This document shows, in pieces, positions 2,556-8,411 of a stretch of DNA of 19,436 nucleotides (position 1 is the first letter of the stretch; every line of letters starts with the position of its first letter). The DNA comes from a virus (Duplodnaviria > Heunggongvirae > Uroviricota > Caudoviricetes): IMG/VR virus record IMGVR_UViG_2529292972_000014. One strand, written 5' to 3'. Position numbers and translations under genes: made by a program. The notes under the pieces were generated by a model, which did no database searches, had not been told where the DNA came from, and saw only the letters and a list, made by a program, of their open reading frames with translations.

Positions 2556-2698
2556 AATCGATCGACAAAAACGATCGATTCGATTTGTTTAATTGATACA
2601 ACAAATAGATTGAAAAGTCATCAACAATGATTCAGGGAGGTGATTATTTACTTAAAGAAAACGAAGAGTTAGGTGGTGAAAACGATCATAAAATGATC
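2556..2698. promoter_or_regulatory. GATC-rich palindromic region upstream of com-mom (candidate Dam-methylation-sensitive promoter/operator region)
   Basis: Perfect 9-bp inverted repeat aatcgatcg(2556-2564)/cgatcgatt(2572-2580) carrying GATC at 2560-2563 and 2573-2576. Second palindrome gatcat aaa atgatc (2684-2698) carrying GATC at 2684-2687 and 2695-2698. Mu mom is known to be controlled through clustered upstream GATC sites. Confidence 0.4.
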
Positions 2699-2784
2699 AT
2701 TTTATTGACTTTTTATACAGTGAAGGTAGGATCACGCGTATATGTAGTATGTTTCAAATCAACAGGATACTACATAAAAGTGAA

Positions 2785-2812
2785 ACCCAGCATAGCTGGA
2801 ACTATGCTGGGT
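2785..2812. repeat. Perfect 11-bp inverted repeat (acccagcatag ctggaa ctatgctgggt); stem-loop or dimeric protein-binding site
   Basis: Read directly from the sequence. On the minus strand it is followed by a U-rich stretch (ttcacttttatg), so it could terminate or insulate minus-strand read-through into com-mom. Confidence 0.5.
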
Positions 2813-2923
2813 CAATCTGTAAAAACTTGCATCAATGCTTTACTTCGAGCTCGTGGCGTATCCTATGATATTCCCCGGTCTCCTGTAAAGCAGAGATGCA
2901 TAAAAAGGAGATCTTTATCATGG

Positions 2924-3091
2924 ATGAAAGAGCCTGTTTGCCCTGCCTGTAAGACTCCCTTACAGCTCATCTATCGCCGTTCTCGATCTCAAAATGGCAA
3001 GACATACAAACCCAAAAATGCTTCCTGTTTCAGGATGCTGATATGTCCTGCCTGTTCTCCCAGGAGGGAAAATACACAAAACGTGCATTAA
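2924..3091 (+). CDS. Small zinc-ribbon protein (CPAC...29 aa...CPAC), divergent from com-mom; N-terminal extent uncertain (ORF open from 2627)
   Basis: Two CxxC pairs (MKEPVCPACKTPLQLIYRRSRSQNGKTYKPKNASCFRMLICPAC). aaggag RBS at 2905-2910. Ends in a convergent arrangement with the minus-strand 81-aa ORF across a GC-rich hairpin. Plus-strand position among minus-strand genes makes it less certain. Confidence 0.35.
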   Translation: MKEPVCPACKTPLQLIYRRSRSQNGKTYKPKNASCFRMLICPACSPRRENTQNVH

Positions 3092-3705: not shown

Positions 3706-3742
3706 TCCCGCCAGCCATATCATGACCGGCGGGATTTTTTTA
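3706..3742 (+). terminator. Intrinsic-terminator-like hairpin on the plus strand (cccgcc...ggcggg followed by T7)
   Basis: GC-rich stem cccgcc(3707-3712)/ggcggg(3728-3733) followed by attttttta. Overlaps the stop codon of the minus-strand 679-aa gene. Confidence 0.4.
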
Positions 3743-5779
3743 TTCTGTTACCGCTTTTTTCACTTCCACCACAATGCTGTCAATCAGCACCGGGTAAGTT
3801 GCATTTTTTGTGATATCCGTTACGCGGAGTTTGTCCACCGGGAAAGTTCCTACTGGTGACTGCGTCAGGGTAAACGCGGCACCATCCTGACCATCAATAA
3901 CCGGAATAACCTGAAGGCTGTTATTTCCTGCAAAACGGAAGGCCAGCGTATGCCATTCATTATCAAATGCACCAAAGGTTCCCAGTTTCTGGTTATTTGT
4001 TGCCACTTTTGCATTGTGGTACATCACATTCAGGTCTTTTGCGTCTGTCTGGATGTAGAACGATGCCAGCAGATTATTCCCTGCATCCCCTGTCAGGGTG
4101 ACACCCTGCGGCAGAGAGGAAACCGGCCAGTAAAGCCCCATGACATACTGGTTTGCCACCAGGTCGCCAGGTACTTTAAAACGACAACTGATTAAACCAC
4201 CATTTTTCAGCAGTTCAGCACCAGTACCGGCATCATGATCCAGATACCAAGATGATTTACCTGTTTCCTTGGTCAGTTTCATTGCCTTACCACCTGTGCC
4301 TCCTGCATCACTGATAATTTCAGCTTTACCGCCAGCCGGCTCCCAGCCCTGGGCTTTCAGATTTCCTTCTGACTCACTGACACGATAAGACAGCAGTGTT
4401 GTGGTTACTGCTTCAGTTTCTGAAGGTGACGGCACTGGTGCTTCAGTTTCAGAAGATGGAACATCGGCTTTTACTGTGGTTCGCCCCGCATGAGTCAGAA
4501 CTGCCGTGGCCAGACGGTCGGAAATAATCCCACGACGTGCCCATGAACTGAAATGGCTGGCCCGGTCCGCAGATGTCCAGGTGGCGGCACTGTTACGCCA
4601 CGTTGAGCCGTAATAACCAATGGATTCAATATCCGGGTCTTCTGCCGGATTGTTGGTGGGTACATTCGCGTCATTTTCATCTGTCATTAATGGAACGAAA
4701 TGAATGTTTTTATCTGTTTTGTTTTTGTAGCCGCCATAGATTGCCTGGTATGCCGGTTCATTTTTCTGTTTCCAGAAATACGTGGTATCGCCACAAATCC
4801 ACGGAACGCCAGCAGCACTGCCACCGGTACACTGTTCCGCCTGTTCAGCCAGGTCTGCGCGGAATTTTTCCACCATCGCCAGAAACAGCGCGGAATGCTC
4901 CGTCGGCTTCGCATCAATATCAAACTCGCCCTGCATCCACACCACAGCAAGCAGGCGGTTTTTCGGGTTCTTCGCCAGTGCCGCTTTTGTCCGGCTGATT
5001 AAGTCCTTATACAGCGGCTTATCCACACCCCAGCGGGCTGAGTCCTCTGAAGCACCCGTGCTGTCACTGTACGTGCCGTCAGCACCCGCCGTGAATGCAG
5101 AACCACCACGGCAGCAGGGAACCAGCAGAATCCCCGCATCTGCCGGAATAAACGGCAGCAGTTTTTTGGCAATGTGAAGCCCCTGACCCACGGTGCCATA
5201 TTGCCCTTTAGCCACATCCGCTTTCGGGTGATTTTTTCCACTCATATCCTGCACATCATGCAGACAGTGGTCGGCCAGAATGATGTCGTTATACTGACAG
5301 GCTTTACCTCCCGGCGTGACTGTACTGCGACGGGCTAACTGCATAATACGCGGTTCGGGGCGGTCATATGTCTCCGGCAGTGGCAGACCTTCACCGTAAG
5401 CCATACCGTTTGACTGACCAGCAAGAACCACCACGTAATACCAGGAAGGGGAGCTGGAAGCAGTTTCATTTCCTGACGGACGGGTATGTGTTTCAGCATT
5501 ATCCCAGTCTGACGGTTCAGCAGTACCGGCAACATCAGCACTTAACGGAATGACCGCACCAATACCCGCTCCGGTAATTTCCACACTCGGATCACCGGAT
5601 ACTGGCCTTACCCACAGGCAATCCCGTGTATTAAAACTGATGAGACAGTCAGCAAATGTCATTCCTCCTTTTGTTTCGGCCGGAGGAAAGGGAGCCTCAA
5701 GAAATGCCGCTGTACCACCGGAAACTTTAACAGTAAAGTTTCCGGGCATTGATGATAGTTGAACCCATTTGGACGTCAT
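3740..5779 (-). CDS. SGNH/SASA-family carbohydrate esterase (sialate O-acetylesterase NanS-p-like) with C-terminal lectin/LamG-like beta-rich domain; phage accessory (moron) gene
   Basis: 679-aa ORF. Motifs YYVVVLAGQSNGMAYGEG (GQSN catalytic-Ser block), VVWMQGEFD (WxQGE block) and a later His-containing block are consistent with sialate O-acetylesterase-type SGNH hydrolases. C-terminal roughly 250 aa is beta-rich and lectin-like. Linker contains a duplicated SETEAPVPSPSETEA segment (direct repeat gcttcagtttc[t/a]gaag about 4410-4456). Confidence 0.65.
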   Translation of the reverse strand: MTSKWVQLSSMPGNFTVKVSGGTAAFLEAPFPPAETKGGMTFADCLISFNTRDCLWVRPVSGDPSVEITGAGIGAVIPLSADVAGTAEPSDWDNAETHTRPSGNETASSSPSWYYVVVLAGQSNGMAYGEGLPLPETYDRPEPRIMQLARRSTVTPGGKACQYNDIILADHCLHDVQDMSGKNHPKADVAKGQYGTVGQGLHIAKKLLPFIPADAGILLVPCCRGGSAFTAGADGTYSDSTGASEDSARWGVDKPLYKDLISRTKAALAKNPKNRLLAVVWMQGEFDIDAKPTEHSALFLAMVEKFRADLAEQAEQCTGGSAAGVPWICGDTTYFWKQKNEPAYQAIYGGYKNKTDKNIHFVPLMTDENDANVPTNNPAEDPDIESIGYYGSTWRNSAATWTSADRASHFSSWARRGIISDRLATAVLTHAGRTTVKADVPSSETEAPVPSPSETEAVTTTLLSYRVSESEGNLKAQGWEPAGGKAEIISDAGGTGGKAMKLTKETGKSSWYLDHDAGTGAELLKNGGLISCRFKVPGDLVANQYVMGLYWPVSSLPQGVTLTGDAGNNLLASFYIQTDAKDLNVMYHNAKVATNNQKLGTFGAFDNEWHTLAFRFAGNNSLQVIPVIDGQDGAAFTLTQSPVGTFPVDKLRVTDITKNATYPVLIDSIVVEVKKAVTE

Positions 5780-5878
5780 AATAATCAGCCTGTTCCTGAA
5801 TAAACTGAATTATCATATCCACAGACCGATAAACGCCATTTTGCGTTAATTCAGTAAAGGCCCAACAAAGGGAGCGTC

Positions 5879-6439
5879 TTATTTTTCCGAAACGCTCGCA
5901 GGATAATAACGATAAAGGGTTGAAAGGCCGATATCAAAAATAAGTGCCACCTGTCTTCGACTGACACCCCCGGCCAGTAAACGCCCGACCTGCTCGTATT
6001 GTTCCTGCGTGAGACGACGGGGTCTGCCGCCGGTTCGTCCCCTTTCACGGGCAGCTGCAAGACCAGCCCGTGTCCGTTCGACAATTAATTCACGCTCCAT
6101 TTCTGCCAGCGCACCCATTATGTGAAAAAAGAAGCGCCCCATGGGGGTTGACGTATCAATGTTGTCAGTAAGACTACGAAAATTTATCCCCTGTTGCTGT
6201 AATTCATCTGTCAGCGCAACAAGGTGGCGCATACTGCGCCCCAGCCTGTCCAGTTTCCAGACCATCAGTGTGTCACCGGGTTTTAGTTTCTTCAGTGCCC
6301 GCTTCAGTCCCGGCCGCTGTGTCGTTTTACCACTCATTTTATCTTCAAAAATCTGCTCACATCCTGCACATTCCAGCGCATTTCTTTGTAAACCTGTGTT
6401 CTGGTCATTTGTTGATACGCGTATATAGCCAATCAGCAT
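5879..6439 (-). CDS. gin: Serine DNA invertase, Gin/Pin/Cin/Hin family
   Basis: MLIGYIRVSTNDQNTGLQRNAL...WKLDRLGRSMRHL...GRFFFHIMGALAEMERELIVERT... is the canonical resolvase/invertase catalytic domain with a C-terminal HTH. Adjacent to a gix-like crossover site and the invertible fibre segment. Symbol gin chosen from Mu-like context; pin is equally possible. Confidence 0.93.
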   Translation of the reverse strand: MLIGYIRVSTNDQNTGLQRNALECAGCEQIFEDKMSGKTTQRPGLKRALKKLKPGDTLMVWKLDRLGRSMRHLVALTDELQQQGINFRSLTDNIDTSTPMGRFFFHIMGALAEMERELIVERTRAGLAAARERGRTGGRPRRLTQEQYEQVGRLLAGGVSRRQVALIFDIGLSTLYRYYPASVSEK

Positions 6440-6493
6440 GTATTTACCTTCCTTAAAAAGAGGTGGAAAGGCCTTTTAAAGCAGATATACGGC

Positions 6494-6519
6494 ATCCCTG
6501 AAACCTCGGTTTACGGGAT
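6494..6519. other. Invertase crossover site (gix/pix-like), left
   Basis: atccctgaaacc tc ggtttacgggat: two 12-bp half-sites in inverted orientation around a 2-bp core, resembling the gix half-site TTCCTGTAAACC as recalled. Confidence 0.7.
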
Positions 6520-6864
6520 ACTGTAAACAGGGCCGCGAATGCCCTGCCATCGAACGGAGCGGCTGTTGCAGCGAATAAACTCGCCACTCCAAGAAATATT
6601 AATGGTGTCCCATTTGACGGAACGCAGGATATAAATATTACATCGGGGATGACGCAGTCTGTGGCTGACTCACGTTATGTTCAAAGCATTCGAAGAGGTT
6701 CAAGGTCAACGATTGGAATGCAATATAATATTTTTGAGGTTCCTGACGGATGCGTACTTACAGGGCTTGATGTCGCTGGTGATGGTAATGCAACGGTAAC
6801 CGCATATTATCGACCTGTTCAGTTTCTGATAGATGGTTCGTGGAAAACAGCTTCCAGCGCATAA
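6508..6864 (+). CDS. Alternative (currently silent) tail-fibre C-terminal segment; no own start codon, expressed only after inversion fuses it to the constant fibre N-terminus
   Basis: Frame open from the crossover site; translates GLRDTVNRAANALPSNGGAVAANKLATPRNINGVPFDGTQDINITSGM...TAYYRPVQFLIDGSWKTASSA, paralogous to residues 178-303 of the expressed fibre. Confidence 0.6.
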   Translation, partial: GLRDTVNRAANALPSNGAAVAANKLATPRNINGVPFDGTQDINITSGMTQSVADSRYVQSIRRGSRSTIGMQYNIFEVPDGCVLTGLDVAGDGNATVTAYYRPVQFLIDGSWKTASSA

Positions 6865-6943
6865 AAGTGCAGTAGTTCAAAAAACAGATTATCTGAATAA
6901 ATATATGATGATTTTGTCTTTTCAACAAAAACAAGGTGAAATA

Positions 6944-7465
6944 ATGGAGCTTATTAACGTAAAACGATATTACCCGGAACACAAACCCTATGGTGAGGAT
7001 GTTCAGTATTTCCAGAGTGAGGACGGAAGGGATTTTTATGAATCTATCCCGCTTTTCACAAAGAAATACAAACTCTGTATTTCGCCTGTAACGGGTATTA
7101 TCTGCTCTGTTGCTGAAGATGTCTCTGCTTTATATCCGGCAGGTTTTACTGTTGTTGAAGTGGACGAACTGCCGGAAGGTGTGAATATTGACGGTAACTG
7201 GCAGTTTTCTGATGGCCTGATATCAAAGGTGCCGGTAAACTGGAAGACGGTTGCTGAAAAGCGCCGCTCATCGCTGCTCCAGGAAGCCAACGAAACTGTG
7301 GATGACTGGAAAACGGAATTAAAACTGGACATGATTAGCGATGAAAATAAATTACAGCTGACGCGCTGGATGGCGTATATCCGACAGCTTAAAGAAATGC
7401 ACTTTAATGATATTGCCAGTGAGGGGCATTACCAGGCGATTCCCTGGCCGGAAAAACCGGAATAA
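6944..7465 (+). CDS. Tail fibre assembly protein (Tfa/U family), belonging to the silent fibre arm
   Basis: aaggtg RBS 7 nt upstream of the ATG at 6944. C-terminus ...QAIPWPEKPE matches the conserved Tfa ending (WPxKPE). The ORF track's longer 6833 start is unlikely. Confidence 0.8.
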   Translation: MELINVKRYYPEHKPYGEDVQYFQSEDGRDFYESIPLFTKKYKLCISPVTGIICSVAEDVSALYPAGFTVVEVDELPEGVNIDGNWQFSDGLISKVPVNWKTVAEKRRSSLLQEANETVDDWKTELKLDMISDENKLQLTRWMAYIRQLKEMHFNDIASEGHYQAIPWPEKPE

Positions 7466-7499
7466 TTCAGAGGGTGCATTCAGCACCCTTTTCTGTGGT

Positions 7500-8411
7500 T
7501 TACACTGAACTTACCGTTCTCCAGGCATTATTAATATAAATCTGAACCGGGCGATAATAGACCCCACCGATATTGTCCGCAGACCGGGAGCCGGTTTCCT
7601 GCACGTTAATTCCGGAAAGCATACAACCGGAAGGTGCGCTGTAATTCCATGACATTTCATTGCCTCCGGGTGAATGATAGCTCTGTGCTCCAAGCTGAAC
7701 ATTCTGTACATACCGGCCATCTGCGGTTGACTGCGTCATTCCTGACGTGATGTTGATATCCAGCGTTCCGTCAAAAGGAACACCATTAATATTTCTTGGG
7801 GTGGCGAGTCTGTTTGCTGCCACGGCGGTTCCACCCGATGGCAGGGCATCAGCAGCCTTATTTACCGTTTCCCGTAAACCGACGTTATCGATAAAAGCGC
7901 CTTTATCCGGAATGTCTGCGCCGTTCTGCTCCCTGCGCAGGTAACGGTTATCACCTTCGCTTTTGCTGTAAACATCCAGATTATTACGGGCGGTTCCCGC
8001 ATTCTCCAGGTCGGCAAGGTTCTGATCCTTCGCCAGAGCATTAACGTCACCGGGACCAAGACTGTTTTTTGTGGCAAGCGCCCCAAGACCAAGATAACCA
8101 CGGGCAAGACGCTGGGCTTCCGCACCGGCATCAGCAATTTCTTTCAGGTTGTTTTTCCGGGAAAAGGCATTCGCAGCGATAATGGCTTTAATGGACAGCG
8201 TAAGCTGGTTTAACTGCGCCTTATCCGGCTGAATACTGGCTTCAGCCAGAATATTCAGCAGTTCGGCCTGGAGAATATTCAGCCAGTCCTGACCAATCCA
8301 GCTGATACCTTTTTGTCCGTCACCTTCGGTAAACCAGGTGGTGGTATTACTCTGCGCCGGTGCCAGCGCAGGCATATTCGCCACGCCGGAATTATTATCA
8401 ACATGGAACAT
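7500..8411 (-). CDS. Tail fibre protein (constant N-terminal part residues 1-177 plus currently expressed variable tip 178-303)
   Basis: ATG at 8411 overlaps the upstream stop by 1 nt (taatg). C-terminus ...GGVYYRPVQIYINNAWRTVSSV resembles myovirus fibre C-termini. The right crossover site lies at codons 177-178. Confidence 0.8.
   Translation of the reverse strand: MFHVDNNSGVANMPALAPAQSNTTTWFTEGDGQKGISWIGQDWLNILQAELLNILAEASIQPDKAQLNQLTLSIKAIIAANAFSRKNNLKEIADAGAEAQRLARGYLGLGALATKNSLGPGDVNALAKDQNLADLENAGTARNNLDVYSKSEGDNRYLRREQNGADIPDKGAFIDNVGLRETVNKAADALPSGGTAVAANRLATPRNINGVPFDGTLDINITSGMTQSTADGRYVQNVQLGAQSYHSPGGNEMSWNYSAPSGCMLSGINVQETGSRSADNIGGVYYRPVQIYINNAWRTVSSV
7869..7894. other. Invertase crossover site (gix/pix-like), right, inside the tail-fibre gene
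   Basis: ttcccgtaaacc ga cgttatcgataa: left half matches the gix half-site 11/12, right half matches the TTATCnnAAACC consensus 9/12. Core ga is the reverse complement of core tc in the left site, as required for inversion. Confidence 0.6.

Follow-up and report, generated by a model that had tools for sequence, protein, structure and literature searches.

A two-tip, one-chaperone tail-fibre inverton in an Sp18-type Mu-like prophage

Invertible tail-fibre segments are a textbook case of programmed host-range switching, and the tail-fibre assembly protein (Tfa) encoded in them is usually taken as the cognate partner of one fibre. In the classical arrangement, that of the Mu G and P1 C segments, each arm carries a fibre tip with its own tfa gene (Sv-U and U′-S′v); P1 C and e14 P are symmetric invertons of the Gin/Pin/Cin type. 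The DNA analyzed here—19,436 nucleotides of Caudoviricetes sequence (IMG/VR record IMGVR_UViG_2529292972_000014; hereafter the window), which by its sequence is the right-hand end of a Mu-like prophage of the Sp18 type—has one tfa gene for two alternative tips, tip-A and tip-B, and the tip expressed in the present orientation has no chaperone gene behind it in cis, as a preliminary description of the window had noticed. That description offered four explanations: a single Tfa serving both tips, an expressed tip that folds without a chaperone, a chaperone encoded elsewhere, or decay of one arm. We consider it probable that the locus is a pared-down host-range switch of the Mu G type, in which two short tips flank a single chaperone gene that they share and that is probably transcribed on its own. 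The arrangement extends a familiar mechanism and is unexpected against the textbook layout; we came across no account of either the single-tfa layout or the inversion-deficient derivatives reported below in the searchable literature.

The contrast with classical systems is borne out by the two-tfa layout of SfMu, of a Mu-type E. coli prophage in which long reads confirmed inversion (PMC9881135), of Morganella prophages, and of 17 of the 48 classifiable IMG/VR loci whose invertase is 73–77% identical to that of the window. Symmetric invertons of Morganella, Pluralibacter, Kluyvera, Erwinia, and IMG/VR likewise have a serine invertase (69–77% identical) beside a fibre gene with alternative 3′ ends, but they differ from the window in carrying two convergent tfa genes. 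At one such locus (L091), the two Tfas belong to different subfamilies (29% identical) and one is of the window type, the only one of the two that the Sp18 group keeps. The Morganella loci were scored with a hidden Markov model built from ten Tfas; plain tblastn undercounts divergent Tfas and made these loci look like one-tfa loci. In a contig scan with the invertase, about 12 loci were classifiable, most matches ending at a contig end beside the invertase.

The backbone is that of Mu and SfMu: baseplate genes gp46, gp47, and gp48, fibre, gin, and then com/mom. As in Mu, the fibre combines a constant part of ~190 amino acids with a last ~70 amino acids homologous to Mu S, Tfa is homologous to U, and gix-like sites with a GA core lie in the same conserved fibre motif. 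Whereas Mu and SfMu have two tfa genes, each 2–3 nt behind its tip, the window has one, behind a 79-nt spacer. The tips (~125 amino acids), the fibre (303 amino acids), and the segment (1.4 kb) are short compared with the 504-amino-acid fibre and 3-kb segment of Mu, and the inverted repeats are 182 nt long, 79% identical, and run inward from the sites, in contrast to the 34-bp repeats of SfMu (PMC4406740). An additional late gene, encoding a DUF6645/SASA protein, stands between the invertase and com/mom, a position at which Mu has no gene.

Inversion and the two fibre tips

The invertase combines a resolvase catalytic domain with a C-terminal helix–turn–helix, as do members of the Din family (Gin/Hin/Cin/Pin), and is 69–81% identical to invertases beside tail-fibre invertons of other enterobacteria. 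A scan of the whole window for the gix 26-mer of PMC3241671 returned exactly two sites with at least 17 of 26 matching positions: ATCCCGTAAACC GA GGTTTCAGGGAT on the left and TTCCCGTAAACC GA CGTTATCGATAA on the right (Table 1). Both have the core GA and they are inverted relative to each other. A multi-inversion system of the shufflon or Min type is ruled out by the presence of only two gix-like sites in the window. The right site falls inside codons for a conserved N-V-G-L-R-E-T-V-N, whose counterpart in Mu S is IQNLGLQETVN, and inverted-repeat arms of 182 nt (6502–6683 and 7705–7886; 79% complementary) start at the ends of the segment.

Inversion at these sites occurs in nature and swaps the 3′ end of the fibre gene. 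In E. coli Z1323MEC0002 (L002), the interior (6508–7886) matches one strand and the flanks match the other, and an in-silico inversion placed anywhere in 6506–6517/7871–7882 yields the L002 sequence with 2 mismatches in 1.6 kb. The exchange replaces the last ~125 fibre codons, so that tip-B, expressed in the window, gives way to tip-A. The preliminary description had placed the expressed tip from 7808 down to 7500; its end at 7500 stands, and the start moves to the crossover core, at about 7881, where the switched part begins. Of complete E. coli genomes, 184 have the intact tip-B-ON junction and 15 the tip-A1-ON junction, which joins tip-A to the constant part of the fibre.

The fibre reading frame runs from 8411 to 7500 on the minus strand and encodes 303 amino acids. 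Residues 1–198 align with residues 1–191 of Mu S (5YVQ_A; whole-sequence E = 4e-49), and the last ~70 residues, in tip-B, are homologous to Mu S residues 435–503, the distal tip; the predicted protein thus amounts to Mu S cut short, its constant part joined almost directly to the distal tip domain. Tip-A and tip-B are 39% identical over their last 77 residues and have in common a C-terminal motif, YYRPVQ..I..W.T.SS; both belong to one domain family, that of the Mu S distal tip. No part of the segment is more constrained than tip-B: among relatives, its ratio of nonsynonymous to synonymous divergence (dN/dS) is 0.04–0.13, at dS >1.

Table 1. Positions of the features discussed, in window coordinates unless a locus is named
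Feature	Positions	Strand	Evidence or remark
154-amino-acid open reading frame	2627-3091	+	Between com/mom and the DUF826 gene, on the opposite strand; only PHROG 26524 (unknown function)
679-amino-acid gene, SASA/SGNH carbohydrate-esterase domain and C-terminal DUF6645	3740-5779	-	Between invertase and com/mom
Promoter-like box of the DUF6645/SASA gene	about 5839-5857	-	
Gin/Hin-family serine DNA invertase, 186 amino acids	5879-6439	-	Pfam Resolvase E 1.4e-51, HTH_7 E 1.7e-14
Left crossover site, gix-like 26-mer	6494-6519	-	19/26 to gix
Tip-A (type A1), silent, in the arm linked to tfa	6508-6864	+	Open frame
Dyad resembling a late-activator (C-type) box	6866-6883	.	13/17 to TTTYTGAWNTYCCGCAAA; 2 nt past tip-A stop
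-10-like hexamer TATGAT of the putative tfa promoter	6904-6909	+	Dyad centre ~-41.5 from predicted start
tfa, 173 amino acids, sole tail-fibre assembly gene	6944-7465	+	Shine-Dalgarno AAGGTGA at 6933-6939
Hairpin terminator between convergent tfa and fibre genes	7469-7491	.	-15.3 kcal/mol (+), -14.7 kcal/mol (-); z -3.1
Tip-B, expressed, no tfa behind it	7500-7881	-	C-terminal part of the 303-amino-acid fibre frame
Right crossover site	7869-7894	+	22/26 to gix
Constant N-terminal fibre part (equivalent to Mu Sc)	7882-8411	-	Mu S match; PHROG 1833 over full length
Deletion region of locked prophages	L011 2935-3238; L012 3120-3423; L039 6501-6804	.	Shared junction
One-tfa invertons with P2-type neighbours	L017 5060-7001; L157 3427-6118; L172 3392-5100		

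A single tfa gene in a conserved layout

By sequence, the product of the one tfa gene belongs to the Tfa/Caudo_TAP (TfaMu-type) family: it matches Pfam Caudo_TAP (PF02413) at E = 1.9e-18 (67.3 bits; cutoff, 22.1), PHROG 136 “tail fiber assembly protein” at E = 1e-57, and Mu U in PDB 5YVQ_B at E = 2.3e-15. Open reading frames and tblastn agree on two tips and a single tfa. With five diverse Tfa proteins as queries at E ≤ 10, tblastn found one tfa locus, and no second one, hidden or frameshifted, in the window and in each of two complete related prophages. The tfa stop ends at 7465 and the stop of the convergent fibre gene occupies 7500–7502, confirming the 34-bp gap (7466–7499) that had been described; it is filled by a hairpin and cannot hold a gene, and no hidden tfa-like frame was found in it. 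Relatives have a hairpin of equal strength (about −15 kcal/mol) and wholly different sequence in the same place.

The same order—tip-A and then tfa on one strand, tip-B convergent with them, followed by the invertase—recurred in every Sp18-type relative examined (L003–L007 and L010), which have different tips and are as little as about 78% identical in DNA and 64% in Tfa; 14 IMG/VR loci also have the one-tfa order. Within this fixed frame the parts are mixed. Tfa class 1 is found with tips A1 or A2 plus B1, and class 2 with A2 or A3 plus B1 or B2. L003 pairs a Tfa of the window type (99% identical) and tip-B with a tip-A of another kind, which shows that tfa is not bound to a single tip-A. In class 2, the spacer ahead of tfa (about 2935–2970 in L004; same place in L003 and L005–L007) starts with an in-frame fossil of the last codons of an earlier tip, INGSWRTAGSA, followed by a stop; tips seem to have been exchanged by recombination immediately 5′ of the former stop codon.

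Selection on tfa is purifying, with dN/dS of 0.07–0.27 in comparisons with measurable dS (>0.05). The N-terminal half of Tfa is the fibre-binding half, and in Mu the protein remains on the fibre tip (PMC9608196). Between classes, dN is 0.15 in the N-terminal half versus 0.44 in the C-terminal half. Mu Tfa reportedly also binds lipopolysaccharide. From its pairing with several tips, we take the Sp18-type Tfa to be promiscuous within this tip family. The conserved layout, the mixing of parts, the purifying selection on both tips and tfa, and the tip-B-ON junction in 184 genomes versus 15 argue strongly that the asymmetry is a conserved design and not decay of one arm, one of the four explanations offered at the outset.

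Evidence for a shared Tfa and its rivals

Outside the Sp18 group, the tips closest to tip-B are those of phage Rac-SA53 (64% identity) and SfMu S′ (60%), each with a tfa gene within 2–3 nt, U′ in the case of S′. The Rac-SA53 tfa starts 2 nt past the fibre gene, and its product, the closest Tfa outside the group, is 53% identical to the window Tfa along its whole length and has the same N-terminal, fibre-binding half; the locus differs from the window in that it lacks an invertase and a second tip and that tfa directly follows the fibre gene on the same strand. These pairings indicate that tip-B-class tips elsewhere are Tfa clients, and Rac-SA53 links tip-B to this very Tfa subfamily.

Further evidence comes from derivatives that can no longer switch. 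One deletion junction, common to seven complete genomes and five IMG/VR loci, marks prophages that have lost the invertase and tip-A (“locked” prophages). At this junction, ~75 nt from the end of the invertase gene run directly into the final ~50 nt of a frameshifted tip-A. Their fibre has a B1 or B2 tip and is permanently convergent with tfa. The locked prophages are Mu-like and full length, and lie in flgL (M1), in bcsA (S1-CAM-01-A), beside xdhB (CI5), and beside citF (JE86-ST05); four insertion sites in unrelated strains mean that the phage spread after the deletion. A phage with the one-tfa layout can spread even if tfa and the fibre gene always converge. In the locked prophages tfa is intact in three alleles, with dN/dS of 0.10–0.15. 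A tfa that served tip-A alone would be useless there, because tip-A has been lost.

From the tip-A stop to the tfa start there are 79 nt in the window, 120 nt in class 2 (about 35 of them a remnant of the end of an earlier tip), and 51 nt in class 3 (the L010 type); SfMu and Rac-SA53 have 2 nt here, and symmetric relatives with a Tfa of the same subfamily have about 23 nt. A Mu late promoter lacks a −35 and consists of a −10 hexamer and a dyad for activator C, centred at −43.5 (PMC2582627). We derived a late box, TTTYTGAWNTYCCGCAAA, from the complete prophage L013, in which the Mor/C-family activator gene immediately precedes lysozyme, using the regions upstream of its lysozyme (Plys), protease (PI), and DUF6645 genes; in these regions the box is followed about 21 nt later by TTAYKCT, and the dyad is centred at −44.5 or −43.5. 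Among 90,000 positions in L013 and the related prophage L014, perfect (17/17) matches are confined to these three promoters; 14/17 is reached at two or three positions in each locus, one of them in the tfa spacer. The Pmom and PP regions of L013 gave no convincing late-box match, and the box rests on three promoters. The best match scores 13/17 in the window spacer (shuffle P = 0.023) and 14/17 in class 2 (P = 0.002). In all three spacer classes, it has the same inverted orientation and lies 41.5–42.5 nt upstream of the predicted start, with a −10-like hexamer of TATGAT (window), TAGTAT, or TATTTT. In an alignment of class-2 spacers, the dyad and the −10 region are conserved, with a variable stretch of 10 nt between them. 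We infer that tfa is an autonomous late transcription unit. Upstream of 6944, where the preliminary description had suggested looking for a promoter, there is a partial activator-box match plus a −10-like hexamer but no complete sigma-70 promoter.

The Gin-family invertase exchanges DNA at the GA cores of the gix-like sites inside the fibre gene. In the mechanism we favour, the single Tfa would fold and cap both tips, recognizing shared features such as their common C-terminal motif (Y-Y-R-P-x-Q...I-x-G-x-W...S). Tfa would be made in either orientation, from an activator box and −10 in the 79-nt spacer, with its own Shine–Dalgarno sequence and its own hairpin terminator; a second role of this hairpin would be to protect tfa against transcription arriving from the convergent fibre gene. 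Of the explanations listed in the preliminary description, service of both tips by one Tfa is the one that the evidence favours.

Several observations weigh against this mechanism. The locked tfa alleles have a dS of 0.22–0.43, in contrast to 3–5% divergence of the 305-nt noncoding junction region, so the alleles were partly imported by recombination; the purifying selection recorded in them was not necessarily exerted within the locked lineage. The published report on Sp18 concerns packaged DNA only, not infectivity (PMC2669165). The tfa promoter is a prediction from sequence, and a sigma-70 scan of the plus strand over 6300–6943 found no complete −35/−10 promoter before tfa, although this is expected, given that Mu late promoters have no −35. 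The box matches are partial (13–14/17), inverted with respect to the three clear late promoters, and 2–3 bp closer to the −10, and that of class 3 is not significant (shuffle P = 0.52).

The main rival holds that Tfa serves only the tip-A linked to it, that tip-B folds without Tfa, and that tfa is silent and unneeded in the orientation of the window; the two fibre versions would then also differ in carrying a Tfa cap. Its appeal lies in gene order: tfa follows tip-A, and inversion would bring the two into one transcript, and the sigma-70 scan just described found no complete sigma-70 promoter before it. With other one-tfa invertons in view, a chaperone supply limited to one orientation is not far-fetched. 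In Enterobacter soli (L017) and the IMG/VR loci L157 and L172, a single tfa is again linked to the invertase-proximal silent tip, and a gap of 150–210 nt behind the expressed tip holds no chaperone gene; these loci differ from the window in their P2-type baseplate neighbours and unrelated tip family. In L157 and L172, and probably in L017, tfa overlaps its linked tip by 1 nt, which leaves no spacer for a separate promoter. Single-chaperone invertons may thus be recurrent, possibly with different logic. Against the rival stand the tip-B-class tips that directly precede a Tfa elsewhere, in Rac-SA53 one of the same subfamily; the locked prophages, which without tip-A keep an intact tfa in three alleles at a dN/dS of about 0.1; the conservation of the N-terminal half of Tfa while tip-A types swap; and a spacer of 51–120 nt with an activator-box-like dyad, which simple co-transcription does not explain. 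The Tfa behind tips of this class elsewhere and the retention of tfa in locked prophages likewise count against the earlier proposal that the current tip folds without a chaperone, and we regard the rival as unlikely.

A shared Tfa could also be expressed otherwise than we propose. The spacer promoter is a prediction with an imperfect box match, and in the tip-B-ON state tfa might instead be transcribed by read-in from a promoter within the tip-A coding region or at the invertase-proximal border. In locked prophages, however, that border is gone, as is almost the whole of tip-A, and only ~135 nt of original sequence remain upstream of tfa; the sigma-70 scan of the plus strand over 6300–6943 was empty. 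We think this route improbable. It is more improbable still that tip-B-ON is a dead end in which tfa is needed but unexpressed, particles lack working fibres, and the asymmetry is tolerated damage. Such a state would fit the convergence of tfa and fibre gene with a terminator between them, and Sp18 particles are directly evidenced by packaged DNA only. It is at odds with tip-B-ON being the state in 184 genomes versus 15 for tip-A1-ON, with tip-B being the most constrained part of the segment, with a layout conserved across deep divergence, and with locked tip-B-only prophages at four insertion sites in unrelated strains, which require spread after the deletion. We give least credence to a tip-B chaperone supplied from elsewhere, whether by a nonhomologous prophage protein (DUF6645/SASA or the product of a small DUF gene) or in trans by the Tfa of another prophage. 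O157 genomes do hold many prophages with tfa genes, and the DUF6645 gene beside the invertase has a clear late-promoter box. But the tblastn searches found no second tfa homologue in the window or the complete prophages, reliance on a helper in trans would fail in a new host, yet the phage family occurs in many strains and sites, and the retention of tfa in locked prophages would go unexplained.

The shared-Tfa reading can be carried one step further, to a “chaperone hub” inverton, in which a generalist Tfa, made from an orientation-independent, activator-dependent late promoter inside the invertible DNA, caps whichever tip is on. We hold this version tentatively, at slightly less than an even chance. 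Two Tfa classes occur with three kinds of tip-A and two kinds of tip-B, and one spacer still holds the remnant end of an earlier tip. If the hub reading is true, tips would be free for single exchange by recombination, and a host-range switch would need only about 1.4 kb. More generally, a conserved switch in which at least two tips share one Tfa would mean that Tfa specificity is broad within a tip family, that tip and chaperone can evolve as separate modules, and that chaperone expression must be independent of the switch. The locked derivatives offer a clean genetic system for the Tfa dependence of a minimal 303-amino-acid fibre, and a single helper gene could be of use in engineering the host range of phages or tailocins.

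Prophage context and neighbouring genes

The 2.7 kb around the segment is 100% identical to many chromosomes of E. coli O157:H7 and other Shiga-toxin-producing E. coli, in which the element is common; matches to it occur in 231 of 5426 complete genomes. On the minus strand, genes for the tape measure, DNA circularization protein, baseplate V, gp46, J/gp47, gp48/YmfQ, and the tail fibre lead into the invertible segment, which is followed by the invertase, the DUF6645/SASA gene, DUF1378, DUF826, com, and mom. Beyond mom, at about 492–1620, the right prophage end abuts a truncated host aminopeptidase gene adjoining frvB. Sakai Sp18 and the copy in FRIK804 occupy other sites, sorM and the interval between prpD and prpE (PMC7430833), so the element has transposed among O157 lineages.

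The DUF6645/SASA product is probably a late, perhaps virion-borne, surface-glycan esterase; in related prophages its gene is preceded by a perfect late-promoter box (L013 36565). The 154-amino-acid open reading frame at 2627–3091 has no Pfam match, and its position holds a different short gene in related prophages. Upstream of com, three GATC sites cluster on the minus strand at 2560–2600 and recall the Dam/OxyR control region of Mu Pmom; no match to the late-activator box was found in this region. In two related prophages, RefSeq annotates a “tRNA-OTHER” on the strand opposite to the head genes (L013 20246–20325; L014 21044–21123), flanked by the genes for the minor head protein and for virion morphogenesis.

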